This document shows positions 19,345 to 46,210 of a stretch of 64,000 nt of DNA, piece by piece. The stretch's first letter is position 1. Each line of letters opens with the position of its first letter. The stretch spans positions 6,378 to 70,377 of the forward strand of contig CAYSAM010000003.1 in assembly GCA_964429015.1 (NCBI GenBank), read 5' to 3'. The notes beneath the pieces are model-generated. The model had not been told where the DNA came from. It searched no databases and saw nothing but the letters and a program-made list of their open reading frames with translations. This DNA is from an uncultured Pseudomonadales bacterium. Lineage in GTDB: Bacteria > Patescibacteriota > Microgenomatia > UBA1400 > MFAQ01. Made by a program: the position numbers and the translations under genes.

Positions 19345-22300
19345 GTGACCAGTTTTTTTACCTATCTTCACAAGCTTAACAAAGTAAAAGTTGGAATAAT
19401 TTTTTTATCTCTTTGTTTTTTGGTGTCAGTCGCCGTTTTTATTTTGCCTCAACTTCGTCAAACTGCGCGCATCAAACTTGGATCAGTAGACGGGCTAACT
19501 ATAACCGCTGATAAGCAGGACTCTCTCGGTATCTTCACCAATACCCAATTTACCGTCAAAACAGATACTGATCTGAGCTCTTCCGACATCAAAAAGAACC
19601 TCACCATTTTTCCTGCTACAGAATTCGATATTCAGCCGATTTCTGCACGTCAATTCACCTTAACTCCAAAACAACACCTCCTAGATAACAGTATCTACAG
19701 AATCGAAGTCAAAACCAATCAAAAAACTTTTTCGTGGGCATTTCAAACCAAAAATGATTTTCGTGTAGTCAATTCTCTTCCAGCCGACAAAACAGCCTAC
19801 GTACCCACAAACACAGGTATAGAACTAATTTTTAGCCACGACAACTGGGAAGATCCAAAAAGTTTCTTTTCTATTCATCCCAAGACGGAAGTAAGTTTCG
19901 AGCGCCACGGCCGGACCGCCTCATTTTTGCCTAAGTCCTTAAATCCCGGAACTCTTTATACCGTTACTCTCAAAAAAGGTCTAAAGCTAAACGGTACTGT
20001 CGATATCCTAAAAGACGATTTCACTTTTCAATTCGAAACAAAACCTTCCACTCCAATACAATCAAAAGTAAGCTTTTCCAAACTAACTTACGAATTTTCT
20101 GACACAGTAACACCAGCTTTCGATGTCTATGTTCCCAGTGAATCACTTTCGGCTATTTCTGCTGATATTTACAAATATCCCGGAGACTCAAGTTTTCTAA
20201 ATCATCTAAATGAAAAAATCTCTACCCCCTCGTGGGCAACTTACTCGGTTAGTAGCGATGTTTTACCAACTAACAATCTTACCAAAGTGGTTTCCCTAAA
20301 TCTAAATATTCAAAAGCAAAAATATAGTAACTTTTTCTCACTTCCCCAAACCCTACCTCTTGGACAATACCTTATCGAGGTATCTGCTGGTGGTCAAAAA
20401 TCCCAAGCACTATTTCAGGTTACCAATGTTTCCGCTTACTTTACCCAAAGTGGCACCAAAACTCTAGTTTGGGTCAACAGTTTAGCAAACGCTCCACTTT
20501 CTGGTGCTACGGTAACTTACAACAATAACAATCAGACCACCGATCAAAACGGCATCTCTTACTTCGAAACTGAACCCTCAGATATACAACTAGGTTTTCA
20601 AAATAAAACAACTATAGTTGCCGTGAAGCAGTCACTTGGAGCTCTTTATTTTCCTTTAAAGAGCGATTATTCTATTTTTTACCAAAAGCAATCACGCCAA
20701 TCAGATAAGTACTGGAGTTATATTTATCTAGACAGGCCCACCTATCTTCCAACAGATACTGTAAAGCTTTGGGGTTTACTCAAAAACAGAGATCTGCCAG
20801 ATAAAAAAACAGAATTTACCTTAGAGGTTACTCGCTCCGATTATCATTCTTGGGACTATCAGCCCATTGCTGTCTATTCCAAAAAAGTTACAACAACAGA
20901 TTTAGGAACCTATCTCGAAGAAATCAACCTCAATCAGTTTTCACCAGGCTGGTATACACTCAGTTTTAAGGTTGGTAATGATATCGTTATTAATTCAGGT
21001 TTTAGTGTTGAAACCTATGTCAAACCAGCCTACAAAATTTCTGTTCAACCTTCGGTCAAAGCTGCTTTTTCTGGAGATCAAATTAATCTTTTAGGTCAGG
21101 CCCAATTTTTTGAGGGGACACCTGTTGTTGGTTTACCGCTAAAAAGCTACAATTCTGACAGTAGTCTAGCTTCACTTACTCCAATCACTGACAACCAGGG
21201 TAAATTTTCAGTTTCTGTTCCTGTAAATAATGGTTCTGCAAATTATTCTCCTAATAATGTGAGTTTTACTTTCTCTCCAAAAAATCCTGAAGAGGGGCAA
21301 ATTTCTGGAAGCGCCAGCCTTGCTGTCTTTTCCTCTTCTCTCTATTTTCCTTATCCACGCATAGACAATAAAAACAATCAATCATCAGTTACTATCAACC
21401 TTCGTCAAGTAGATCTTCAAAAATACTCTCCCACAGCCGACCTCGCCGAGGTTTTTAATCCAGCACCAAATCAAAATGTTCACGCTGTTATTTATCAAAT
21501 CGATTGGCTCAAAAATCAGGTTGGTACGTACTACGATTTTATAAACAAGGTAACCTCTCCAACTTACGAATACTCACAATCTCAAAAGCAAATAGGGGAG
21601 TTTGACTTGGTTACAAATAGTTCTGGTCAAGCCACTTATAGTGTCAATCTCCCCGAAAATACAACATATAAAATTTCATTTTCTTCCAAGGATTCACTGG
21701 GCAGGACGGTTACTCAAGAAGCCATTTTGTACGGTAACAATTATGGTAATTCAGACGACAATTTTCTTTATCTAAAAACCGATAAAGAACAAGAGAAACC
21801 AAATACGTATAATATCGGCGAGCAAGTTAACCTTCATATTGAACAGGGTGGTAAAACTATAGCCGAAAACGAGTCAGACAAGTTTCTTTTTATTGTTTCT
21901 CAGCGCGGAATCAGATCATATTATCTCTCAGATAATGGCCTATTCAGCTTTAAATTTCCCGAAACCTTTATTCCAAACTTTTTTATCCAAGCAGTAAGAT
22001 TCAACGGTCAAACCTACCAAGCTACCGAAAATCTAAGCCTTTACTTCAACCAGGACTCCAAAAAATTAAACATTAAACTTTCCTCAGATAAACCTCTGTA
22101 CGAACCTGCTGATACTGCCAAAATTAACGTTACCACTTCAGACAATAGTGGCAATCCTATCCCTGCTGAAGTAGTCCTCAACGTGGTCGACGAGTCATAT
22201 TATGCACTCTTCACAGATTATCTCAATCCACTTTCAGAGATATACAAATCTGTCCAAACAGATATCATTACTACTTACGCCACACATCAATATCCAAGCA

Positions 22301-24528
22301 ACAACTCCGGAGCCGAAGGTGGTGGTTGTTTTCTTCCTGGAACCCAAATTCTTATGGCCGATGGAAAATCAAAAGGAATAGAGGAAATAAAAGTAGGTGA
22401 TAATATTAAAACTCGTCAAAGTCTCACTGACAAAAAACTAGTTAGTGCTAAGGTCAAAGAAGTCTTCACTCATCAAGTCAACGGCTACCTGCTAATAAAC
22501 AATCATCTTCGTGTCACCAAGGAGCACAACCTATATGTCAATGGTCGTTGGTTGACGGCAGGTGAGGTTAGGATTGGAGATAGTTATTTGTCAGTCGATG
22601 GAACTTACCAAACAATCAAGTCTATAGAGCCTCAGTCTGGTTTGTACAATGTTTACAACTTATCTATCGACAATCTTCACACCTACTTTGCTGAGGGCTT
22701 TTATGTTCACAACGAAAAAGGCGGTTCCCTTTTCAAAGACACAGCCTTTTTCGGCAACCTAACTACCAATAATCAAGGTCAAGGGTCTGTTGATATAAAA
22801 TTACCCGACAATCTCACTTCTTGGCGCGTGTCTTCAGTGGGACTCAGTTCCAATCTACAAGCAGGCAGTAAAACATTTCCACTGATTGTCAGGTTACCGT
22901 TTTTCCTCACCGCTACTCTTAATACTGACTACTTAGTTTCAGATAAACCTGTTGTTGTTGTACGCGCCTTTGGAGACAGTCTAGTTTCTGGTGATCAGGT
23001 AAATCTAAAAGTCGAGTCTTCTACCTTAAGTATCTCAAAATCAGTTTCTGGTCAAGCTTTCGAGCCCATAAAAATTGACATCAGTCCTCTAAAAGAAGGT
23101 CAACACAAACTAATTTTTACCGCCAGCTCACCAAAAGGTGGTTACAAGTTAGAAAGAACCATCAATGTTCTATCTACTCATCTTTCAAGGAGGTTTACAA
23201 AGTCTATCCCTCTAGCCGAAAATATTTCTTCATCCTCTTTTTCTGCTCAAAATCAAAAACTCGTAATTGCAGATCAAGGGTTAGGGAAGTATTATTCTCA
23301 ACTAACGTCTTTAACTTCCACTTGGGGTGATCGTCTAGATCAAAAAAACGCTCGATCCTTATCTCAGGAGTTGCTAAATCAATATTTCCAGGATCAAAAA
23401 CCCGTGGAGAAAATAGATTTCAATCTATACCAAACAAATACCGGAGGAATATCCCTCTTTCCTTACTCTGGTGCCGACATCGAAAACACATCCTTCATAG
23501 TAGCTTTAAGCAAAAATAAAATTGACAACTCCGCTGTTAAAAGCTACCTGTACTCAGCTCTTACCAAAGCAAAAGATCCAAATACCGCCAGTAAAGCACT
23601 ATTTGGTATTGCCAGTTTGGGTGAGCCGGTTCTTATCCAGATCAACAACATCATCGAAGATTCAAAAATAGATTTGGAGACAAAACTTTATCTTGGTTTG
23701 TCACTAGCAGAAATAGGTGACAAGGAAAAATCTTTATCACTCTACAAGGAGCTACTTGCCACAACCAAATTAGAAGAACAAAACATTTCCATCATTGCAC
23801 TTTTTGCTGACCTGTCAGCCATACTTGGTCAGTCAGAGGCAGACGATTTTCTTAACCGTGTCTTTACCACCTCATCTAAGGAGTACTCATTAGTAAGTCA
23901 AAAACTATTTGCACTTCAGAGTCTGTTACCAAGAGCCAGTACAGAACCAGTCGCTTTTACTTATAGTCTTGCTGGCACAGAAAAAAAGATCACTCTTGCC
24001 AAAGGGCAAAACTTAAACCTCTATGTTACGGAAAAGGACTTAGCCACTCTAAAATTCTCAAATATCTCTGGTCAAGCCATCATCACTTCTGTTATTTCTG
24101 TTCCTGTAGAGCCTGCCAAAATGGCAGCCAATTCCAGCCTAGTTCTTACCAGAACCTTTTATGTTGCGGGTAAAGAATCAACTTCAATAGGTGAATCAGA
24201 CTTAGTTAAAGTCGGTCTTACTTTCCAGATAAACGAAAATCTTCAAGATGGTTGTTATCAAGTTCAGGATGTTTTACCTTCCGGTCTAAAACCTGTTTCT
24301 GCCTTGTTATACCCCGGCCAAGACACCGATTTTTATCACTACCCCTACCAAATCGATGGCCAAAAAGTTAGTTTTTGTGTAACTAAAAACAGCACTAACA
24401 AAAATATTTACTACTATGCAAGAGTCGTAAACCAAGGCGTTTTCAAAGCAGAAAATGCCTTAATTCAGTCCTTAGCTAGCCCCTCCATTTTTACTCTCTC
24501 GCCTTCTTCTGAAGTAAATATAAAATGA
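19345..24528 (+). CDS. large alpha-2-macroglobulin-family surface protein (1727 aa) with embedded Hint / bacterial intein-like domain
   Basis: N-terminal TM/signal; Big-like repeats; A2M-domain signature ...LPDNLTSWRVSSVGL...RLPFF... with VVDESYYAL upstream. Residues 995-1123 run from CFLPGTQILMADG to FYVHN, which is Hint-like. No CxEQ thioester. Confidence 0.8.
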   Translation: MTSFFTYLHKLNKVKVGIIFLSLCFLVSVAVFILPQLRQTARIKLGSVDGLTITADKQDSLGIFTNTQFTVKTDTDLSSSDIKKNLTIFPATEFDIQPISARQFTLTPKQHLLDNSIYRIEVKTNQKTFSWAFQTKNDFRVVNSLPADKTAYVPTNTGIELIFSHDNWEDPKSFFSIHPKTEVSFERHGRTASFLPKSLNPGTLYTVTLKKGLKLNGTVDILKDDFTFQFETKPSTPIQSKVSFSKLTYEFSDTVTPAFDVYVPSESLSAISADIYKYPGDSSFLNHLNEKISTPSWATYSVSSDVLPTNNLTKVVSLNLNIQKQKYSNFFSLPQTLPLGQYLIEVSAGGQKSQALFQVTNVSAYFTQSGTKTLVWVNSLANAPLSGATVTYNNNNQTTDQNGISYFETEPSDIQLGFQNKTTIVAVKQSLGALYFPLKSDYSIFYQKQSRQSDKYWSYIYLDRPTYLPTDTVKLWGLLKNRDLPDKKTEFTLEVTRSDYHSWDYQPIAVYSKKVTTTDLGTYLEEINLNQFSPGWYTLSFKVGNDIVINSGFSVETYVKPAYKISVQPSVKAAFSGDQINLLGQAQFFEGTPVVGLPLKSYNSDSSLASLTPITDNQGKFSVSVPVNNGSANYSPNNVSFTFSPKNPEEGQISGSASLAVFSSSLYFPYPRIDNKNNQSSVTINLRQVDLQKYSPTADLAEVFNPAPNQNVHAVIYQIDWLKNQVGTYYDFINKVTSPTYEYSQSQKQIGEFDLVTNSSGQATYSVNLPENTTYKISFSSKDSLGRTVTQEAILYGNNYGNSDDNFLYLKTDKEQEKPNTYNIGEQVNLHIEQGGKTIAENESDKFLFIVSQRGIRSYYLSDNGLFSFKFPETFIPNFFIQAVRFNGQTYQATENLSLYFNQDSKKLNIKLSSDKPLYEPADTAKINVTTSDNSGNPIPAEVVLNVVDESYYALFTDYLNPLSEIYKSVQTDIITTYATHQYPSNNSGAEGGGCFLPGTQILMADGKSKGIEEIKVGDNIKTRQSLTDKKLVSAKVKEVFTHQVNGYLLINNHLRVTKEHNLYVNGRWLTAGEVRIGDSYLSVDGTYQTIKSIEPQSGLYNVYNLSIDNLHTYFAEGFYVHNEKGGSLFKDTAFFGNLTTNNQGQGSVDIKLPDNLTSWRVSSVGLSSNLQAGSKTFPLIVRLPFFLTATLNTDYLVSDKPVVVVRAFGDSLVSGDQVNLKVESSTLSISKSVSGQAFEPIKIDISPLKEGQHKLIFTASSPKGGYKLERTINVLSTHLSRRFTKSIPLAENISSSSFSAQNQKLVIADQGLGKYYSQLTSLTSTWGDRLDQKNARSLSQELLNQYFQDQKPVEKIDFNLYQTNTGGISLFPYSGADIENTSFIVALSKNKIDNSAVKSYLYSALTKAKDPNTASKALFGIASLGEPVLIQINNIIEDSKIDLETKLYLGLSLAEIGDKEKSLSLYKELLATTKLEEQNISIIALFADLSAILGQSEADDFLNRVFTTSSKEYSLVSQKLFALQSLLPRASTEPVAFTYSLAGTEKKITLAKGQNLNLYVTEKDLATLKFSNISGQAIITSVISVPVEPAKMAANSSLVLTRTFYVAGKESTSIGESDLVKVGLTFQINENLQDGCYQVQDVLPSGLKPVSALLYPGQDTDFYHYPYQIDGQKVSFCVTKNSTNKNIYYYARVVNQGVFKAENALIQSLASPSIFTLSPSSEVNIK
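22327..22713 (+). mobile_element. Hint (BIL/mini-intein-like) domain inserted in the A2M-like protein
   Basis: Begins with Cys and ends with His-Asn (HN); 129 aa. The +1 residue is Glu, not Cys/Ser/Thr, which argues for BIL-type over a canonical intein. Confidence 0.65.
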
Positions 24529-26258
24529 AGTTTTGGCAGCTTATTCTTGGTTTTTCTCTGATGCTATCTATTGTCTTTTTGTCATTCCGGTCCCGGTCTA
24601 ATACTCAGTCCTCATCATTGCTAGTAGAGCGTGGCAATCCAGAGTCAATCTCGACCACCTTTGCCTACGATCAAAATACTTTTCTAAATTCACTTTCATC
24701 TTCAAATTTCTCAAAAAATAAATACGCAAAAGGAGTAATTATTCCTCATCACCTCCTGGCCTCTCCGCTTATTGTCAAAGGAATAAGTATGCTCAGCGTA
24801 ATTGATCCTCAAAGTACTGTTATTCTGCTATCTCCCAATCATGCAAACCTAGGAAGCTGCGACATTGTCTCTTCAAATCTTCCCTGGTCCACTCCATATG
24901 GAGAAGTCGAAATAGACAAAAAATTGCAAGATGAGTACTTAGTTTCAAAACAAATTTGCATTGATAATTACAGTATAAAAGAAGAACATGGTATCGCTAC
25001 CATCTTGCCATATCTTAAGTATTTTTACCCTCAAGTCAAAGTTCTCCCACTCGCATTTAAAAAAAATATTTCCGAGGAAAAGTTAGAAAAAATAGCCTCA
25101 TTGCTTTCACAAACTTTAAAATATCAAACTAACTTTTTAATTAGCTCAATTGATTTTTCACACAACCTTAGTCTTTCAGAGTCCCAAAAAAAAGATTTGC
25201 TAACCGAAAAATATATCGAATACAAAGACGTCAAAACCATAAAAAATCTTTCCTCTGACTTTCTAGATTCGCCATCGGTACTAATAAATACTTTGCAAAT
25301 AGCCCAAAAAAACGATCTTACTACAAATCAAGAAAATCACAAATCTTCGTACGATTTTGGCTCAAACAGCGATGGGGTTACAAGCTATTTTGTTTATAGT
25401 CTGACTCCAAAACAAACAGATCAAAATTTGACTCTTTTATTTGGCGGCGATGTTATGCTTGGTCGCTCTGTAAATACTCAAATTAGAAATTTTGCCGACT
25501 ATGCCTGGCCAACCAAACTAGTTTCCGAGTTCACAAAACAGTCAGATCTTTTTCTTATAAACCTAGAGTCACCATTCAAGTCAGGGTGTGAGCCAACCGA
25601 CAAGGGTATGGTTTTTTGTGCTCACCCCAATAGCGTGGCCACCCTCGTTAGCGCTGGTGTCGACGTTGTCAATATAGCCAATAACCATATTTATAATCAG
25701 GGCAAAGAGGGTTTATTAGAAACTATCAATATTTTAAATAAAAATAACATTGTATTTGTAGGGGCGGACCCCCGTGTCCGCCCGTTAGATAACCCATTTA
25801 GTTCAATCATCACCATCAAAAATACCAAAATAGCCATCTTAGGTTTCAATGATATTGCACCCTTTCCCCAAGAGGTAAACAAATTGACAGTAGAAAATCT
25901 AACAAGCCAAATTAAAGGTGTTCGTTCTCAGGCAGACTTAGTCATTGTTACTTTTCACTGGGGAAACGAATACCAAAAAGCCAGCCCTCGTCAAAAGGAG
26001 TATGCTCACCTAGCTATCGACCAAGGTGCAGATGCCGTCATCGGTGCCCACCCTCACTGGGTGCAAGAGTTCGAGGAATACCAAGGCAAGCCTGTTTATT
26101 ATTCACTTGGCAATCTGGTCTTCGATCAAATGTGGTCCGAGGAAACCAAAAGTGGACTATTAGTAAAGCTTACCTATCAGAATAAAAAGCTTATCAAAAC
26201 CGAAAACTTTCCCGTAAAAATCGAAAACTACGGCCAACCGTATATAATCAAATTATGA
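24525..26258 (+). CDS. Memo-like (AmmeMemoRadiSam B family) :: CapA/PGA_cap metallophosphatase fusion protein with N-terminal TM
   Basis: N-terminal half: GVIIPHHLLASP...LLSPNH...EHGIATILPYL...SSIDFSHN (Memo pattern). C-terminal half: LLFGGDVMLGRSV...IANNHIYNQG...FHWGNEYQ...GAHPHW (CapA). ATGA overlap with the upstream gene. Confidence 0.65.
   Translation: MKFWQLILGFSLMLSIVFLSFRSRSNTQSSSLLVERGNPESISTTFAYDQNTFLNSLSSSNFSKNKYAKGVIIPHHLLASPLIVKGISMLSVIDPQSTVILLSPNHANLGSCDIVSSNLPWSTPYGEVEIDKKLQDEYLVSKQICIDNYSIKEEHGIATILPYLKYFYPQVKVLPLAFKKNISEEKLEKIASLLSQTLKYQTNFLISSIDFSHNLSLSESQKKDLLTEKYIEYKDVKTIKNLSSDFLDSPSVLINTLQIAQKNDLTTNQENHKSSYDFGSNSDGVTSYFVYSLTPKQTDQNLTLLFGGDVMLGRSVNTQIRNFADYAWPTKLVSEFTKQSDLFLINLESPFKSGCEPTDKGMVFCAHPNSVATLVSAGVDVVNIANNHIYNQGKEGLLETINILNKNNIVFVGADPRVRPLDNPFSSIITIKNTKIAILGFNDIAPFPQEVNKLTVENLTSQIKGVRSQADLVIVTFHWGNEYQKASPRQKEYAHLAIDQGADAVIGAHPHWVQEFEEYQGKPVYYSLGNLVFDQMWSEETKSGLLVKLTYQNKKLIKTENFPVKIENYGQPYIIKL
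25749..25779. repeat. REP-like palindrome (family 2) inserted in-frame within the CapA-like CDS
   Basis: GTAGGGGCGGACCCCCGTGTCCGCCCGTTAG; near-identical to the element downstream of the RAYT at 44628. Confidence 0.7.
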
Positions 26259-27955: not shown

Positions 27956-28123
27956 TAGCTAACAGAGTTATTTTATCACGCATATAGAAACCTAACTTAA
28001 TATTTTAATTTGACATGGGTACTTGCAAAAATAACCCGAAAGGATTAAATTGATTCTTGTAGGGGATGACTCCCACGTCAACCCAAAAAATAAACAATAA
28101 AAATAAAAATTAACCAAAACAAA

Positions 28124-29182
28124 ATGGCCAAAAAATCAAAAAATGAAGAAGCAAAAGGTGTCCAAACTCACGTCGACAATAGCGCTCGTCTTACCGCAGT
28201 AAAAATCGCCATGCAACAAATCACCAAACAATTTGGTGAAGGCGCCATCATGCACATGGACTCCGACAAAATCAACGACAAAATCCCCGTAATCTCTACT
28301 GGCTCCATAAGTTTAGATTTAGCTCTTGGTGTTGGTGGTTTCCCCAAAGGTCGCATTATCGAAGTCTACGGTCCAGAGGCTTCAGGTAAGACCACGGTTG
28401 CTCTCCACGTTGTTGCCGAAGCTCAAAAGCTTGGAGGTATCGCTGCCTTTATCGATGCAGAGCATGCTTTAGATCCAAGCCGTGCCAAATCTATTGGTAT
28501 AAATTTAGAAGAACTCTTACTCTCCCAGCCAGACAATGGCGAACAGGCACTAGAGATTGCTGAAACTTTAATTCGTTCTGGCGGAGTCGATGTTGTTGTC
28601 ATTGACTCAGTTGCCGCCCTAGTTCCCAAAGCTGAAATCGAAGGGGAAATGGGGGATGCTGCCATGGGTATGCAAGCGCGTCTTATGAGTCAGGCACTAA
28701 GAAAAATAACCGGTGCCATTTCCAAAAGTAAATGTATTGTTATTTTTACTAATCAACTAAGAGACAAAATTGGTGTCATGTTCGGTAATCCCGAGGTCAC
28801 TACTGGTGGTAAAGCGCTAAAATTCTATGCCTCCATCCGTATCGACATGCGTAAAATTGGCAACATCCAAGAGGGAGACGAAATTATTGGTTCACGTCAT
28901 CGCGCTAAAATAGTCAAAAACAAAGTTGCTTCCCCTTTCAAATTAGCCGAGTTCGATGTTCTCAATGTTGGTGGCATTAGTAAGTTAGGAGATCTTCTAG
29001 ACACCGCCATTGCCTACGGCGTCGTCGAAAAAGCCGGCTCCTTTATTAAATACGATGGCCAAACTCTGGCGCAAGGACGCGATGCCGCCAAAGCAGTTTT
29101 GTCTGGTCAGCCAGAAACTGTTGAGAAAATCAAAGAGCAAGTAATGGAAAAGGTCAATGCCGGAGTACAACCAGAAAAATAG
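28124..29182 (+). CDS. recA: recombinase RecA
   Basis: ...[27 protein letters not shown]...FIDAEHALD... Confidence 0.96.
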
Positions 29183-43322: not shown

Positions 43323-44183
43323 ATGAACTGGATGAAGCACCTCTCCCTCTACTTTTTACTTTCAGCGCTAATAATTATTCCCGGAACCTATTCCTTAACT
43401 AAATACGGCTTTAAACTTTCAATTGAGTTTACTGGTGGAACCTTGGCTAGTTTTAACATTGAAGACAGTAAAAAAAACAATTTAGTCCAGTCTTTAAATG
43501 CATACAACCCGCAAACCGAAAATAACATTCCAGGTCACATTACCCTCAAGCTCAAAGAAATTTCCGAAAAAGATCTTTTGCAAATTATGCAAAAAACCAG
43601 CACTTTAAGTGCAGAGATAAATCTTAGTAGTTTTGAAACAGTCGGACCTGTTCTCGGTCAAGAAACTCTCAAAAAAACTCTTAATGCCTTAGCTATTTCT
43701 TCTTTGCTTTTGCTTATATATATAAGCAGTGCTTTTAAACAATTTAAATATGGTGTTAGCGCCATTATCGCCATGTTGCACGATACTGTAGTTCTTCTAG
43801 GATCTTTTTCCCTTCTAGGGCACTTTTATGGTATCGAAGTTGACTTGCTTTTTGTAACTGCCGTTCTCACTATTCTTTCATTTTCTGTTCACGATACTAT
43901 TGTTGTTTATGACCGTATTAGAGAGTTAAGTCACAAGGTAAAAGGCGTATCTTTTGTAGATCTTGTCAACCAAGCTGTTTCTGAAACCATGGTCCGTTCC
44001 CTGAACAACTCCTTAACTATTATTTTTATGCTTATCGCCATGTTCCTAATTGGGGGAGAGTCCACCAAATATTTTTCCTTAGCTCTGTTAATCGGTACCA
44101 TTACCGGAACTTACTCTAGTACTTTCACCGCCGCTCCACTCCTTGTTGTTTGGAATAAATTATTCGAAAAAAATAAAAAATAG
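43323..44183 (+). CDS. secF: protein translocase subunit SecF
   Basis: ...IEFTGGTLASFNIE...; 6 TM. Confidence 0.9.
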   Translation: MNWMKHLSLYFLLSALIIIPGTYSLTKYGFKLSIEFTGGTLASFNIEDSKKNNLVQSLNAYNPQTENNIPGHITLKLKEISEKDLLQIMQKTSTLSAEINLSSFETVGPVLGQETLKKTLNALAISSLLLLIYISSAFKQFKYGVSAIIAMLHDTVVLLGSFSLLGHFYGIEVDLLFVTAVLTILSFSVHDTIVVYDRIRELSHKVKGVSFVDLVNQAVSETMVRSLNNSLTIIFMLIAMFLIGGESTKYFSLALLIGTITGTYSSTFTAAPLLVVWNKLFEKNKK

Positions 44184-44631
44184 GCACTCAATCAGGTTAC
44201 CTGGTTATGATTACTCACAAAGTGGGTGGTATTTTGTCACCATTTGTTCATATAAACACGAATGTATTTTTGGGGAAATTGTTGACGGAGAAATGAAATT
44301 AAACGAAATTGGGAAAAACGTGGAACAAAAAATTTTGGAAATGCCAAAGTATTATGGAATAAAAATTGATTGTTTTTGCGTTATGCCAAATCATATACAT
44401 GTTGTTATGGTTATTCCCAACCGTTCGACAATAATAGGGCAGGCGCAGGGGCCTGCCCCTACCATTGGTGAATATGTTAAACGTTTAAAAACCATTACGA
44501 CCAAAAAACAAAAAATGTGGCAACGCAATTATTATGAACATATCGTTCGTGATGATGTGGACATCTCTCGAATTCGTGAATATGTTAATTCAAATGTAAA
44601 AAATTGGATAATTGATAAATTAAATGCGTAG
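44143..44631 (+). CDS. REP-associated tyrosine transposase (RAYT, IS200/IS605 TnpA-like HuH)
   Basis: ...LPGYDYSQSGWYFVTICS...VMPNHIHVVM (HuH)...RNYYEHIVR (catalytic Tyr). No in-frame ATG downstream of the secF stop, so the start is uncertain (41-nt overlap with secF, or a non-canonical start). Confidence 0.75.
   Translation: MLFGINYSKKIKNRHSIRLPGYDYSQSGWYFVTICSYKHECIFGEIVDGEMKLNEIGKNVEQKILEMPKYYGIKIDCFCVMPNHIHVVMVIPNRSTIIGQAQGPAPTIGEYVKRLKTITTKKQKMWQRNYYEHIVRDDVDISRIREYVNSNVKNWIIDKLNA
44437..44466. repeat. REP-like palindrome inside the RAYT CDS
   Basis: GGGCAGGC-GCAGGG-GCCTGCCC. Confidence 0.6.
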
Positions 44632-44705
44632 GGGCAGGCCCCCGTGCCTGCCCTTGTATATCCCCCATGCCTGCCCTTGTATATCCCCCATGCCTGCCCT
44701 TGAAC
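44628..44705. repeat. REP cluster downstream of RAYT: full palindrome GGGGCAGGCCCCCGTGCCTGCCC plus two tandem 23-bp half-site repeats (CCCATGCCTGCCCTTGTATATCC)
   Basis: Same family as 25749-25779. Confidence 0.8.
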
Positions 44706-44713
44706 TGCCCCCG

Positions 44714-46210
44714 CTACCCTCGGGTTGACATATTATTTTCCCCTATCTCCAAAACTCTCTTCAATAAATACTCTCTTTGATTTTTTGAAGTATCCTCCAA
44801 TACTTCCTCAAATAATTCCTTCAAAACTTTACCAATAATGGGTCCAGGCGCTACTTTCAAAACCTCCATCACATCTTTTCCGTTCACTGCCATATCATTT
44901 ATCTCCATAGGCTCAAATAGTTGTTCACCAATTCTTTTTTGTAGTTCCAAAAATCTCCAACTTGTTGTCTTAGAGCCACTCCCTTTTCGGTCAGAAATTC
45001 TAAGTAGTACCAAGTCAGCAATATTCTCTTTACCCACCTTTCGAATTAATCTTCTTATGGCACTATCTGTCATAGAGGGTTGATAGTTAAACATATGCCA
45101 TCGGACCAATGTCTCTATTTTTTCAATTTCCTTTCGGCTAAATCTGAGCCTTTCTGCAATCTCTTTTGCCATTCTTGCTCCAATTACCTCGTGGCCATAA
45201 AAAGTAATCATTCCTCTTGTTGGTTGTTTGTAGCCACAATTTGCACATGTGTGAAAATCATCAGGAAGATCTCTAAACATTTTTCCGCATTTTCTACATT
45301 TAAATCGCTGACTTCTAGGTTTACCAATATCATGAATCAATGCTACAAATCGTACTAGTGGATTGGGTGATGGACAATTTTTTAAGCTCTGAATCGAGTG
45401 CTCCAAAACCGACCATTCGTGGTGTCCACCTTGTGCAGTATTCTTACCCTCAAGAATTTCGGGTAAAAAATAATTTATTAAGTTGGTAGATATTAAAAGG
45501 CTAAGGCCGTCGGCAGGATAGTTAGATCCTAAAATTTTCAAGAACTCTTCTCTTACTCTCTCCTTGCTAATTTTTTCTAGCAAAGCTGCATTTTTGCTTA
45601 CAGCTACAAGTGTTTCAGTGTCAATTGCAAATCCCAGTTTCGAAGCAAACCTAATTGCTCTCATCATTCTCAAGGCGTCTTCGCGGAATCGTCTATCAGG
45701 ATCTCCTACAGCTTTTATAACCCCTTTCTCAAAATCAGCTAGTCCTCCCACCAAATCAATCAACTCCCACTGTGATCTGTGATCTGTTATCTGTGATCTA
45801 TATCCCACCACTAGTGCATTTACCGTAAAATCCCTCCTAACTATATCCTCCTCCAAGTTTTTACCCCAAGAAACATTATCAGGTCGCCTAAAGTCAGAGT
45901 ACTCCTTTTCCGATCTGTATGTAGTAATCTCATACAACTCTTCCGTTCCGTCAACGTTCACATTGTAGGATACTGTCCCAAAATCATTATTATAAAAAGG
46001 ATTAAGATCCTTTAGTACTTCCAAGCTTTCCTCGGGGGTAGCGTTTGTGGTCAAGTCACAGTTTTCCGGTCGTTTGTTAACTAGTAGGTTCCTCACTCCG
46101 CCACCTACCAAATAAATCTCAAATCCTGCCTTAATATAAAGATCCATCACCACATTTAAGGCTTCGGGTATCAACGCAATTTCATCTGCTACCAAGTCTC
46201 TTTTGTACAC
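44714..46210 (-). CDS. cca: CCA-adding tRNA nucleotidyltransferase (PolyA-pol head plus HD domain)
   Basis: ...FEIYLVGGGVRNLLVNKRPENCDLTT...RRDFTVNAL...HD: ALIHDIGKP. Contains an internal heptanucleotide tandem repeat (45770-45799). Confidence 0.85.
   Translation of the reverse strand: MYKRDLVADEIALIPEALNVVMDLYIKAGFEIYLVGGGVRNLLVNKRPENCDLTTNATPEESLEVLKDLNPFYNNDFGTVSYNVNVDGTEELYEITTYRSEKEYSDFRRPDNVSWGKNLEEDIVRRDFTVNALVVGYRSQITDHRSQWELIDLVGGLADFEKGVIKAVGDPDRRFREDALRMMRAIRFASKLGFAIDTETLVAVSKNAALLEKISKERVREEFLKILGSNYPADGLSLLISTNLINYFLPEILEGKNTAQGGHHEWSVLEHSIQSLKNCPSPNPLVRFVALIHDIGKPRSQRFKCRKCGKMFRDLPDDFHTCANCGYKQPTRGMITFYGHEVIGARMAKEIAERLRFSRKEIEKIETLVRWHMFNYQPSMTDSAIRRLIRKVGKENIADLVLLRISDRKGSGSKTTSWRFLELQKRIGEQLFEPMEINDMAVNGKDVMEVLKVAPGPIIGKVLKELFEEVLEDTSKNQREYLLKRVLEIGENNMSTRG
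45770..45799. repeat. heptanucleotide tandem repeat (TGATCTG x ~4, two imperfect) inside cca
   Basis: tgtgatctgtgatctgttatctgtgatcta; encodes ...RSQITDHRSQW... in a loop. Confidence 0.8.

Follow-up and report, generated by a model that had tools for sequence, protein, structure and literature searches.

Directly behind secF, on the plus strand of the 64-kb stretch of DNA analysed here (referred to as the window), lies a reading frame that resembles a transposase gene, opens inside secF with no canonical start codon and runs into a GC-rich palindrome at its end. The question is whether such a frame is a gene at all, what its product might do, and how its palindromes and its missing start are to be understood. 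The frame is uninterrupted from 44092 up to its stop codon, TAG, at 44629-44631. At its maximal extent, from a TTG at 44143 to the stop (44143-44631, plus strand), it is an intact ORF of 489 nt, stop codon included, and codes for 162 amino acids. The ORF is real, and its product is a Y1 HuH enzyme that belongs with the REP-associated tyrosine transposases (RAYT, or TnpA_REP). With its REPs, it very likely belongs to subclass 2.4 of TnpA_REP. The locus as a whole is, on balance, probably a still expressed REPtron of that subclass, in which a domesticated gene for a Y1 HuH transposase is accompanied by the REP hairpins cognate to it.

The enzyme and its active site

The protein matches the Pfam family Y1_Tnp with 37 bits (cutoff 23). 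Its top NCBIfam family is REP_Tyr_transpos (NF047646), for which the score of 54.1 bits is still under the cutoff of 80. In a profile search, TnpA_REP of E. coli (4ER8) was the best solved relative (E 5.9e-8), with the HuH, Tyr and Asn positions aligned at about 16% identity. The same structure is the top PDB match of the AF2 model (pLDDT 86) in Foldseek (4ER8_A, E 1.2e-6, TM 0.56). The protein has roughly 8000 homologues, and the best relative in a scan of genome contigs is 44% identical. The family had been proposed earlier from the sequence alone, and it is borne out by these family and structure matches, by the anatomy of the REPs and by how the start region compares with those of relatives. 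The gene had also been called single-copy; by tblastn, this is correct within the 64-kb window, to which the statement is confined.

The HuH motif claimed in the preliminary description, MPNHIHVVM, is indeed present, with NHIH at 44389-44400 (plus strand). Its H84 and H86 align to H59 and H61 of 4ER8, and N83, H84 and H86 are invariant. The catalytic tyrosine, on the other hand, had been placed in RNYYEHIVR, and here the alignment with 4ER8 gives a different answer. The block WQRNYYEH (44518-44541, plus strand) is the 'W' motif, modelled as a beta strand at residues 126-134, and it aligns to the strand WQPRFWEH of 4ER8 and not to Y115. It is Y147 and N151, in the Y motif YVNSNV (44581-44598, plus strand), that align to Y115 and N119-P120. 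Thus, of the motifs put up for alignment, the HuH stood and the proposed tyrosine did not; the predicted catalytic tyrosine is Y147 in REYVNSNV. Both Y147 and N151 (Tyr, then Asn at +4) are invariant in an alignment of 106 sequences, and all 16 residues that are invariant in this alignment are retained in the window RAYT.

A few features depart from the rest of the family. The class signature Y---NP has a proline where the window RAYT has V152. The 120 closest homologues conform to the motifs of subclass 2.4: WQ is present in 115/117 and NP closes the Y motif in 105/116, while the clade of the window has NV or NL. Their median length is 196.5 aa. The window protein, at 162 residues or fewer, is shorter, and no family member has a shorter HuH-Tyr linker. 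Compared with relatives, the dN/dS of the gene is about 0.15-0.27, a value that mostly reflects the history preceding the deletion discussed below; just 5 sites of the ORF separate the nearest relatives with the same junction. Taken alone, the stretch ahead of the first ATG (44182-44292) gave a dN/dS of 0.21 against L089, which is an indel-rich and possibly chimeric contig.

The Pfam match, and the IS200 transposases that also appear among the structural matches of the model, could be read as signs of an autonomous insertion sequence of the IS200/IS605 type inserted beside secF. The TnpA proteins of this group (IS608, ISDra2) share the Y1 HuH fold, the recognition of single-stranded DNA hairpins and a 4-nt guide at the foot of the hairpin. 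They are, however, encoded by multicopy autonomous elements with a Y...Q motif and LE/RE hairpins outside the gene, often accompanied by tnpB. The window RAYT has N where IS200 has Q, reaches only 26.6 bits against transpos_IS200 (NF033573; cutoff 55), is present once in the 64-kb window, and has neither tnpB nor a hairpin upstream of the gene. Moreover, a 61%-identical relative has the gene at the same chromosomal site, so that an insertion sequence is extremely improbable here.

The same synteny bears on the placement beside secDF in an otherwise housekeeping region, which had been considered notable. The RAYT gene is followed by a convergent gene of the CCA-adding enzyme/poly(A) polymerase family (cca; 44714-46210, minus strand; Pfam PolyA_pol, PolyA_pol_RNAbd, tRNA_NucTran2_2). 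Since the 61%-identical relative also has its RAYT at this site beside cca, the placement is not unusual. The cca gene adjoins the RAYT in the related loci L004-L007, L089 and L090. In L004-L007, the gene order is DUF3048, MazE-like, secD, secF, three further genes, RAYT, cca (minus strand), relA and S11 peptidase. RAYTs are known from published work to be inherited vertically and to behave as housekeeping genes, and the synteny of the window agrees with this.

REPs inside the gene and at its 3' end

Six copies of the octamer GGGCAGGC are present in the 64-kb window, where 0.75 would be expected, and none of 100 shuffles reached 6. All six are located at 44437-44458 and 44632-44699, i.e., within and just behind the RAYT gene. 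The first of these regions is an intragenic REP on the minus strand (44437-44462), GTAG-GGGCAGGC-CCCTGC-GCCTGCCC, with a DNA hairpin of -10.6 kcal/mol. Its plus-strand reading keeps the RAYT frame and gives GQAQGPAPT, a part of the HuH-Tyr linker at the protein surface, between H86 and the helix 108-119. The second is a 3' REP on the plus strand (44628-44653), GTAG-GGGCAGGC-CCCCGT-GCCTGCCC, whose DNA hairpin has -10 kcal/mol (z -3.4). The stop codon of the RAYT gene is part of the GTAG foot of this REP. A REP foot likewise provides the RAYT stop in L004, L089 and L090, and in 21/84 family loci. The two REPs stand head-to-head and bracket the last third of the gene.

The 3' REP leads into a tandem array (44639-44702, plus strand) that repeats the 3' half of the REP (loop, 3' arm and 9 nt) with a period of 23, 2.8 copies and 97% matches. 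This 23-bp half-REP array is a product of local duplication. The earlier account of the downstream REPs, one full palindrome (44632-44653) and two further 3' half-sites (44669-44676 and 44692-44699), was therefore accurate. The same account spoke of flanking REPs; a search upstream of the RAYT gene revealed neither a hairpin nor a REP, and the second REP is the intragenic one, which had been overlooked. The copy number and the unit of the 3' array vary, with three full REPs at 58 bp spacing in L004 and a single REP in L090, and the copy number differs between close relatives too. Double-foot REPs are present in 26 family loci; those of the window are single-foot only.

Two more REP copies are dispersed in the window. 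One, with the stem GGGCGGAC (25758-25783, plus strand), is in frame in a Memo/PGA_cap gene and codes for VGADPRVRP. The other, GTAG-GGGATGAC-TCCCAC-GTCAACCC (28059-28084, plus strand), is degenerate with one stem mismatch, forms a weak hairpin (-4.3 kcal/mol) and lies 40 nt upstream of recA. Each of the four copies has the form GTAG-GGG.....CCC, and two of them are inside coding sequences. The window contains 8 GTAG-tagged hairpins in all, against 0.47 in shuffles. The exact 26-mer of the REP was found in more than 120 metagenome stretches, and in 9 of the 80 examined it is in or adjoining a RAYT gene.

It may be asked whether these GC-rich palindromes are ordinary terminators or mRNA-stabilising hairpins with no relation to the RAYT. 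The 3' hairpin does lie between the convergent RAYT and cca genes. The intragenic hairpin has a T-rich run behind it on the minus strand and was flagged as terminator-like, and in the literature REPs are mostly downstream of ORFs, as possible RNA elements. Such a reading is nevertheless very unlikely. Every copy has the GTAG foot and the 8-6-8 form, coding sequences hold two of the four window copies, and the identical 26-mer recurs in RAYT linkers or at RAYT 3' ends of unrelated genomes. In the family, the linker DNA contains a perfect stem of at least 8 bp in 61/84 non-redundant loci, and such a stem is found elsewhere in the gene in far fewer of the 84 (N-terminal parts, 5; C-terminal parts, 7). 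The roles of terminator and REP are, besides, compatible, and one does not replace the other.

The palindromes are hence best taken as cognate REPs of a subclass 2.4 REPtron, and the intragenic one has a history of its own. In four lineages of the clade, it is found at the identical codon position, in frame, in the 8-6-8 form and with its GTAG foot facing the 3' REP. The hairpin is perfect in the window, L004 and L090, and degraded in L089. L004 and L090 have it at the same position and in the same 8-6-8 form as the window, with other stems. The internal stem has been swapped among three REP subfamilies (GGGCAGGC, GGGCGGAC and GGGTCGAC), while the 3' REP is constant. A gradual compensatory evolution of the internal stem was considered and set aside. 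An exchange for members of other REP subfamilies was preferred, since the internal REP of L090 is identical at 26/26 positions to the dispersed copy at 25758-25783 of the window.

That the intragenic REP is a maintained cis-element of the system, and not a tolerated passenger, is an unlikely idea. If it were true, the head-to-head REPs around the module of the catalytic tyrosine could make the RAYT gene a substrate of its own enzyme, for example through cleavage that limits itself, through conversion templated by a REP, or with the gene serving as a 'master copy' from which REPs are seeded. This might also explain in part why, between otherwise mosaic strains, no stretch is better conserved than the RAYT segment.

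As regards the enzyme, its mode of action can be proposed by analogy with TnpA_REP of E. coli. The RAYT would bind the single-stranded REP hairpin together with the 5' GTAG foot. Its metal ligands would be H84 and H86, and Y147 would cut and rejoin the single-stranded DNA via a 5'-phosphotyrosine link. This cut-and-rejoin activity would spread and rearrange the REPs. The protein may be catalytically active.

The junction with secF and the missing start

The upstream neighbour, secF (43323-44183, plus strand; Pfam SecD_SecF_C, 4.6e-47), is read in the same direction as the RAYT gene, whose frame is the secF frame +1, and there is no intergenic space between the two. The stop codon of secF is TAG at 44181-44183. 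With a start at the TTG 44143, the RAYT gene would overlap secF by 41 nt (44143-44183), exactly as had been described. It had also been pointed out that no in-frame ATG precedes the YDY block; this is so, and from the opening of the frame up to that block there is no in-frame GTG either. The complete list of candidate starts comprises TTG 44143, TTG 44146, ATA 44155, ATA 44173 and ATC 44191, of which the first four are within the overlap.

The first ATG (M51, 44293) comes only after the conserved N-terminal block (44182-44292, plus strand; R14...SIRLPGYDYSQSGWYFVTICS..., strands beta1-beta2), in which R14, R18, L19, Y24 and G44 are invariant in the 106-sequence alignment. In the AF2 model, strand beta1 is formed by residues 28-36, and residues 1-13 are predicted to be disordered. 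The gene callers in four independent assemblies give only a 112-aa product from M51, and in the model this product would be without the strands beta1-beta2. A start at ATC 44191 was rejected, as it would cut off the invariant R14 and the nearly invariant S16. The two in-frame TTG codons, in turn, would give an N-terminus of normal length. No Shine-Dalgarno-like sequence is present ahead of TTG 44143 or 44146. The same is true of 25/34 long ORFs in the window, so the Shine-Dalgarno sequence is uninformative as a criterion and cannot pick the start. The resemblance of 'KIKNRH' to the N-terminus 'MIKNRH' of P0017, as a mutated ATG, was also discarded; the bases in question are the native 3' end of secF.

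The relatives reveal what is missing. L004 and L090 keep a native GTG start that is absent from the window, and, by comparison with L004, the secF C-terminus of the window is native as far as its stop. The window is also without the three genes that lie between secF and the RAYT in L004-L007, and without about six codons. Its secF stop shares bases with AGG, the codon of R14, which is the earliest of the invariant residues. L089, with about 375 bp between secF and the RAYT, was considered as an intermediate state but is given little weight, as the contig is possibly chimeric or error-rich. Its identity to the window is 98% within secF and 76% beyond, with 79 gap openings and a broken cca, and its secF-RAYT spacer, when compared with L004, matches nothing.

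The following history is proposed. The RAYT would have been passed on vertically at a fixed site beside cca. A deletion, apparently at a TAG(G) microhomology, would then have taken three genes along with the native GTG start and about 6 codons that are not conserved, and therefore the secF stop came to overlap the codon of R14. The direction of the event was presumably a loss in the lineage of the window. The gene is most likely still expressed weakly, as part of the secDF transcript, with a start at TTG 44143 or 44146 inside secF as the probable choice, and ATA 44173 would be a less likely start than these.

The overlap of the secF stop with the R14 codon could be interpreted in another way, namely as a SecF-RAYT fusion made by +1 frameshifting or transcriptional slippage at AAA-AAA-TAG (44175-44183), with K286 joined to R14. 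The RAYT frame is indeed +1 to that of secF, and A7 and A6 runs are present ahead of the stop. Yet secF of L004 ends at the same place while its RAYT is separate with its own start, the A-run is altered in the closest relatives (GAG for GAA), no stimulatory element is evident, and a membrane-tethered single-stranded DNA nuclease is without precedent in the family. Such a fusion is, therefore, highly improbable. A -1 frameshift on A-AAA-AAT fails already on the coordinates, as it misses the RAYT frame, which +1 alone reaches.

A more serious alternative to an expressed REPtron is that the gene is a recent relic. The deletion would have taken the promoter, the start and the first codons, no full-length protein would be made, and the REPs would be fossil hairpins. 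Several observations are in keeping with this. The conserved core has no preceding ATG or GTG, and the truncated 112-aa product alone is callable. In this clade alone, the near-invariant Y...NP motif has Val in place of Pro; the linker is shorter than in any other family member, and the protein falls below the NCBIfam cutoff. REPs amount to only about 4 copies per 64 kb, one of them degenerate. The 489-nt ORF is, however, intact, although an AT-rich genome gains stop codons easily (the host genome, of the Patescibacteria, has a low GC of 39%), and it keeps 16/16 invariant residues. The junction together with the intact ORF is found in at least 4 assemblies, in lineages whose secF differs by about 13%. 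Two in-frame TTG codons allow an N-terminus of normal length, and the copy number of the REP array is still changing between close relatives. A relic is thus possible, but it is a good deal less probable than a gene that is still expressed.

Comparison with known TnpA_REP systems

Subclass 2.4 of TnpA_REP has been defined by the motifs NH[IFV]H, WQ and YIxNNP, a variable beta3-alphaC insertion and in-frame REPs between HuH and Y (Quentin et al. 2018, BMC Genomics 19:475). It corresponds to RAYT group 4 (Bertels et al. 2017, GBE 9:2110). The window RAYT has NHIH and WQ, its Y motif partly follows YIxNN, and its variable insertion between HuH and Y holds an in-frame REP. Its REPs are long and GTAG-tagged, with three G-C pairs at the base of the stem. 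Low copy number and vertical inheritance are further traits of the subclass; the 64-kb window has one copy, at a site beside cca that is conserved in L004-L007, L089 and L090. Compared position by position, YVNSNV agrees with YIxNNP at only three of the five specified positions (Y, x and the second N) and has V for I, S for the first N and V for P. The window RAYT differs from the subclass in this Y motif ending in NV and not NP, in its length (162 aa or less, where the median is 194), in the loss of the native start codon, in the absence of a double-foot REP from the window and in its host, as the Patescibacteria (CPR) are outside the taxa listed for the subclass. Within this group, the host is probably a member of Candidatus Shapirobacteria, a name that derives from a RecA cluster-mate with that label.

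The biochemistry of TnpA_REP is known only from the E. coli enzyme. The E. coli K-12 protein (4ER8; subclass 2.2; Messing et al. 2012, Ton-Hoang et al. 2012) has the same fold as the window RAYT, its HuH histidines, Tyr and Asn are aligned, and its REP also consists of a 5' GTAG foot beside a GC-rich hairpin. Its motifs are, however, DHLH, WE and YIHYNP. It also has a C-terminal inhibitory tail with E161, and its metal ligand H123 has the invariant W155 as its equivalent in the window. The E. coli REPs are arranged in BIMEs on either side of the gene, and an intragenic one, as in the window, is absent.

The layout of the locus, with one REP inside the gene and one at its stop, matches the published signature, and the RAYT is an ordinary member of subclass 2.4. 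The in-frame REP between HuH and Tyr is a hallmark of this subclass that has been in print since 2018 and is not new here; the intragenic palindrome, quantified in the present analysis over 84 loci, was accordingly dropped as a new observation. For the most part, then, the locus changes nothing and fits the 2018 description of RAYTs that carry an in-frame REP. Its value lies in placing a subclass 2.4 REPtron in the reduced genome of a member of the Patescibacteria, and in a small clade in which the intragenic REP has been exchanged between REP subfamilies. It also offers a natural case in which promoter and start are lost and the ORF is intact in several diverged strains. Such a start-less but intact ORF could show the minimal expression need of a domesticated transposase, or else a gene caught at the moment of its loss.

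The transposase and its subclass

The reading frame that runs out of the end of secF codes for a REP-associated tyrosine transposase (RAYT or TnpA_REP), as the preliminary description had proposed. Its product matches Pfam Y1_Tnp with 37 bits (cutoff 23); the best NCBIfam model, REP_Tyr_transpos, stays at 54 bits under its cutoff of 80, and transpos_IS200 is likewise below cutoff (26.6 against 55). Nearly 8000 database proteins match it, and those with a name are annotated as RayT or REP-associated tyrosine transposase. With a profile of close homologues, the best solved relative is the E. coli TnpA_REP (crystal structure 4ER8; E 5.9e-8). The AlphaFold model (pLDDT 86, pTM 0.79; input alignment of 106 sequences) also has 4ER8_A as its top Foldseek match in the PDB (E 1.2e-6, TM 0.56), with the ISDra2 and IS608 transposases next in rank.

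In the profile alignment, H84 and H86 fall on H59 and H61 of 4ER8, which bears out the HuH motif. The catalytic tyrosine is a different matter. It had been placed in the RNYYEH block; WQRNYYEH, however, pairs with WQPRFWEH of 4ER8 and is modelled by AlphaFold as a beta strand. It is REYVNSNV that pairs with VDYIYINP, which puts Y147 at the position of the catalytic Y115 and N151 at that of the metal ligand N119.

The TnpA_REP proteins are split into subclasses, of which subclass 2.4 is identical with group 4 in Bertels et al. 2017 (Quentin et al. 2018). This subclass is described by the motifs NH[IFV]H, WQ and YIxNNP, a median length of 194 aa and a highly variable beta3-alphaC insertion; its REPs either are long and have a stem base of three G-C pairs, or have a ‘double foot’, i.e., 5' GT[AG]G plus 3' C[TC]AC (Quentin et al. 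2018). In-frame REPs inside tnpA_REP itself, in the stretch from HuH to Y, are unique to it (Quentin et al. 2018).

The RAYT studied here carries NHIH, WQ and the Y motif YVNSNV. Among its 120 closest homologues, WQ is present in 115 of 117 and NP in 105 of 116, with a median length of 196.5 aa. A perfect stem of at least 8 bp lies in the HuH-to-WQ DNA of 61 of the 84 non-redundant family loci, from many phyla, as against 5/84 for the N-terminal and 7/84 for the C-terminal parts of the same genes; many of these linker stems take the form GTAGGGGC...GCCCCTAC. Since the NHIH and WQ motifs and the linker palindrome common in the family match the published description, the locus belongs to a described kind, TnpA_REP subclass 2.4. 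The fit to group 4 is good for NHIH and WQ but not for the Y motif, where the class-wide Y---NP has Val in place of Pro; the closest relatives likewise have NV or NL. The very short linker and the lack of a start codon are further differences.

REPs in, after and away from the gene

Six copies of the octamer GGGCAGGC are present in the 64-kb window, where 0.75 would be expected; 0/100 shuffles reach six, and all six copies sit at the RAYT locus. Two form a palindrome immediately past the stop (44632-44653), and two further 3' half-sites (44669-44676 and 44692-44699) lie within a tandem array (44639-44702; period 23 bp, 2.8 copies, 97% matches), so that the downstream palindrome with its two half-site repeats is present as first described. 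The gene is, however, not flanked by REPs as had been claimed. A hairpin scan of the window found no REP-like element upstream of it, and the remaining two copies make up an intragenic palindrome (44437-44458) that had been overlooked.

On the minus strand, from 44462 to 44437, the intragenic element has the sequence of a canonical REP, GTAG-GGGCAGGC-CCCTGC-GCCTGCCC, while the 3' REP (44628-44653, plus strand) reads GTAG-GGGCAGGC-CCCCGT-GCCTGCCC. The two are arranged head to head, with their GTAG feet toward the 165 bp between them, which code for helix alphaC, the WQ strand and the catalytic helix. Folded as single-stranded DNA, both hairpins have about -10 kcal/mol. The RAYT stop codon is itself the TAG of the 3' REP's foot, as it is in the relatives L004, L089 and L090 and in 21/84 family loci. 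On the minus strand (44436-44459), the intragenic hairpin has a T-rich run after it and was flagged as terminator-like; the CCA-adding-enzyme gene cca (44714-46210, minus strand) is convergent with the RAYT ORF, and the hairpin could halt antisense read-through coming from it.

The 3' REP stem, GGGCAGGC, is constant within the clade. For the intragenic stem the window has GGGCAGGC, L004 has GGGTCGAC and L090 has GGGCGGAC, all of these REPs being 8-6-8 (stem-loop-stem) and in frame. The L090 version is identical at 26/26 positions to a dispersed copy in the window (25758-25783); by this identity, the internal REP was replaced from the genome's REP pool and did not drift through stepwise compensatory changes. 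The array after the 3' REP differs as well: L004 has three full REPs at 58-bp spacing, L090 has one, and the window, L089 and L001 have half-site repeats. In three independent assemblies (L001, L002 and L091), the contigs terminate within the array after the RAYT stop (L091 12718-12778), which suggests that it is repeated elsewhere or length-variable within populations.

The window holds eight GTAG-tagged hairpins against 0.47 in shuffles, and four of them are of the locus REP family. The copy at 25758-25783 is perfect (GTAG-GGGCGGAC-CCCCGT-GTCCGCCC) and in frame within ORF 24525-26258, where it codes for VGADPRVRP in the PGA_cap domain of a Memo/PGA_cap fusion protein. A degenerate copy with one stem mismatch (28059-28084) follows a small MtN3/PQ-loop gene and lies 40 nt ahead of recA, which starts at 28124; a cluster-mate of the RecA protein bears the label Candidatus Shapirobacteria. 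As a separate observation, ORF 19345-24528 (1727 aa) contains a 129-residue segment (22327-22713), beginning CFLPGT and ending FYVHN, that looks like a Hint/intein-type domain; the residue following HN is Glu, not Cys/Ser/Thr.

Beyond the window (GC 39%), the matches listed for the exact 26-mer GTAGGGGCAGGCCCCCG[CT]GCCTGCCC cover more than 120 metagenome stretches. The GC of 80 fetched loci extends from 40% to 76%. A RAYT gene lies at the REP in nine of them (six within the linker, three at the 3' end), and none was found within the fetched sequence of the other 71. Thus, given this GC range and the mostly RAYT-free surroundings, a single REP sequence appears to be common to very different genomes.

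The secF junction and the state of the gene

On the contigs L004-L007, whose RAYT is 61% identical, the gene order is DUF3048, small ORF, MazE-like, secD, secF, HD hydrolase, hypothetical, HAD hydrolase, RAYT, cca (minus strand), relA/spoT and S11 peptidase. The window has the same order minus the three genes between secF and RAYT. As the order is kept, RAYT occupies a fixed chromosomal site adjoining cca. This agrees with the literature, where RAYTs are described as housekeeping-like genes that are passed on vertically. The placement beside housekeeping genes is, therefore, less notable than had been thought.

In L004 and L090, RAYT starts with GTG, nine to ten codons ahead of SIRL. In the window, secF (43323-44183, plus strand) ends inside the open RAYT frame; its C-terminus is homologous to the L004 counterpart as far as the stop (VVWNKLFEKNKK and VVWDKYFGSNK, respectively), and RAYT homology starts at AGG 44182, overlapping the secF stop. 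The simplest reading of the junction is a deletion, whose direction we infer, between the secF TAG and a TAGG within RAYT codons 6-7 (CCT-AGG in L004). Such an event would have cost the locus the three genes, the GTG together with the promoter region, and some six codons that are not conserved.

The identical junction is present in four assemblies (L001-L003 and L091). Against L001 (window 43360-44684), secF is about 87% identical as far as position 44099, followed by about 99% across RAYT and the REPs; against L091 (31035-44687), 300-nt bins vary from 63% to 97%, with the RAYT segment highest at 96-98%. Such mosaic identity suggests that recent recombination moved the RAYT cassette, junction included, between lineages. 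L089 is 98% identical in the secF 3' end and 76% past it, with 79 gap openings, cca in three pieces and about 375 bp unmatched between secF and RAYT (L089 217-590). The contig could be a chimera, an assembly rich in errors, or from a strain in decay.

The RAYT frame is open from 44092 to the stop at 44629-44631 (plus strand; 162 aa from the first TTG). Scanned from its opening onward, it has no ATG or GTG upstream of the conserved core, as first reported; the earlier raw observations thus hold. The candidates are TTG 44143, TTG 44146, ATA 44155, ATA 44173 and ATC 44191, and the first ATG is M51 (44293). A Shine-Dalgarno criterion is of no help in choosing among them, since the genome is largely without such sequences: in 25 of the 34 window ORFs that reach 200 aa, the 22 nt ahead of the gene lack such a motif, and the leader is A/T-rich instead. 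The invariant R14 would require a start at or before 44179. From M51, the product would be without strands beta1 and beta2 of the model and the invariant R14, R18, L19 and Y24.

Expression at a low level from TTG has roughly even chances. The two TTGs lie inside the translated secF frame, which favours a recent pseudogene, and yet they give a near-normal tail of 12-13 residues, predicted to be disordered, the family's usual being 9-10. Expression from ATA, a poor initiator, is improbable, which again favours the pseudogene. Against it, the ORF is intact, all 16 invariant residues of the 106-sequence alignment are kept, and dN/dS against L004, L090 and L089 is 0.15-0.27, a signal mostly older than the deletion. 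Ahead of M51, dN/dS is 0.21 over 37 codons, as measured against the doubtful L089 contig only; the junction-sharing strains differ at just five sites in the ORF. On balance, a recent pseudogene is the less likely state, though a good deal more plausible than an ATA start. A SecF-RAYT fusion through a +1 frameshift is remote: the only points in its favour are that the frames are compatible and that they would join exactly at R14.

Proposed activity and what is particular to the locus

By analogy with the E. coli enzyme, a RAYT monomer would bind the single-stranded REP hairpin via the stem base and the 5' GTAG, with the HuH histidines and N151 coordinating a divalent metal. Y147 would then cut at a short site set by guide bases, giving a 5'-phosphotyrosine intermediate, and strand transfer onto another 3'-OH would move or duplicate REPs. 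Variable 3' arrays and an exchanged internal REP are what such a transposase would be expected to produce; replication slippage and gene conversion would yield the same patterns.

The RAYT identity, the GTAG REPs and the in-frame intragenic REP are already published for subclass 2.4. A REP overlapping the RAYT 3' end also seems to have been noted before, going by a ‘3'ov’ label in a figure legend. Particular to this locus are its Patescibacteria host, the start-less secF fusion kept in several strains, the NV form of the Y motif, and an internal REP that has been swapped between subfamilies.
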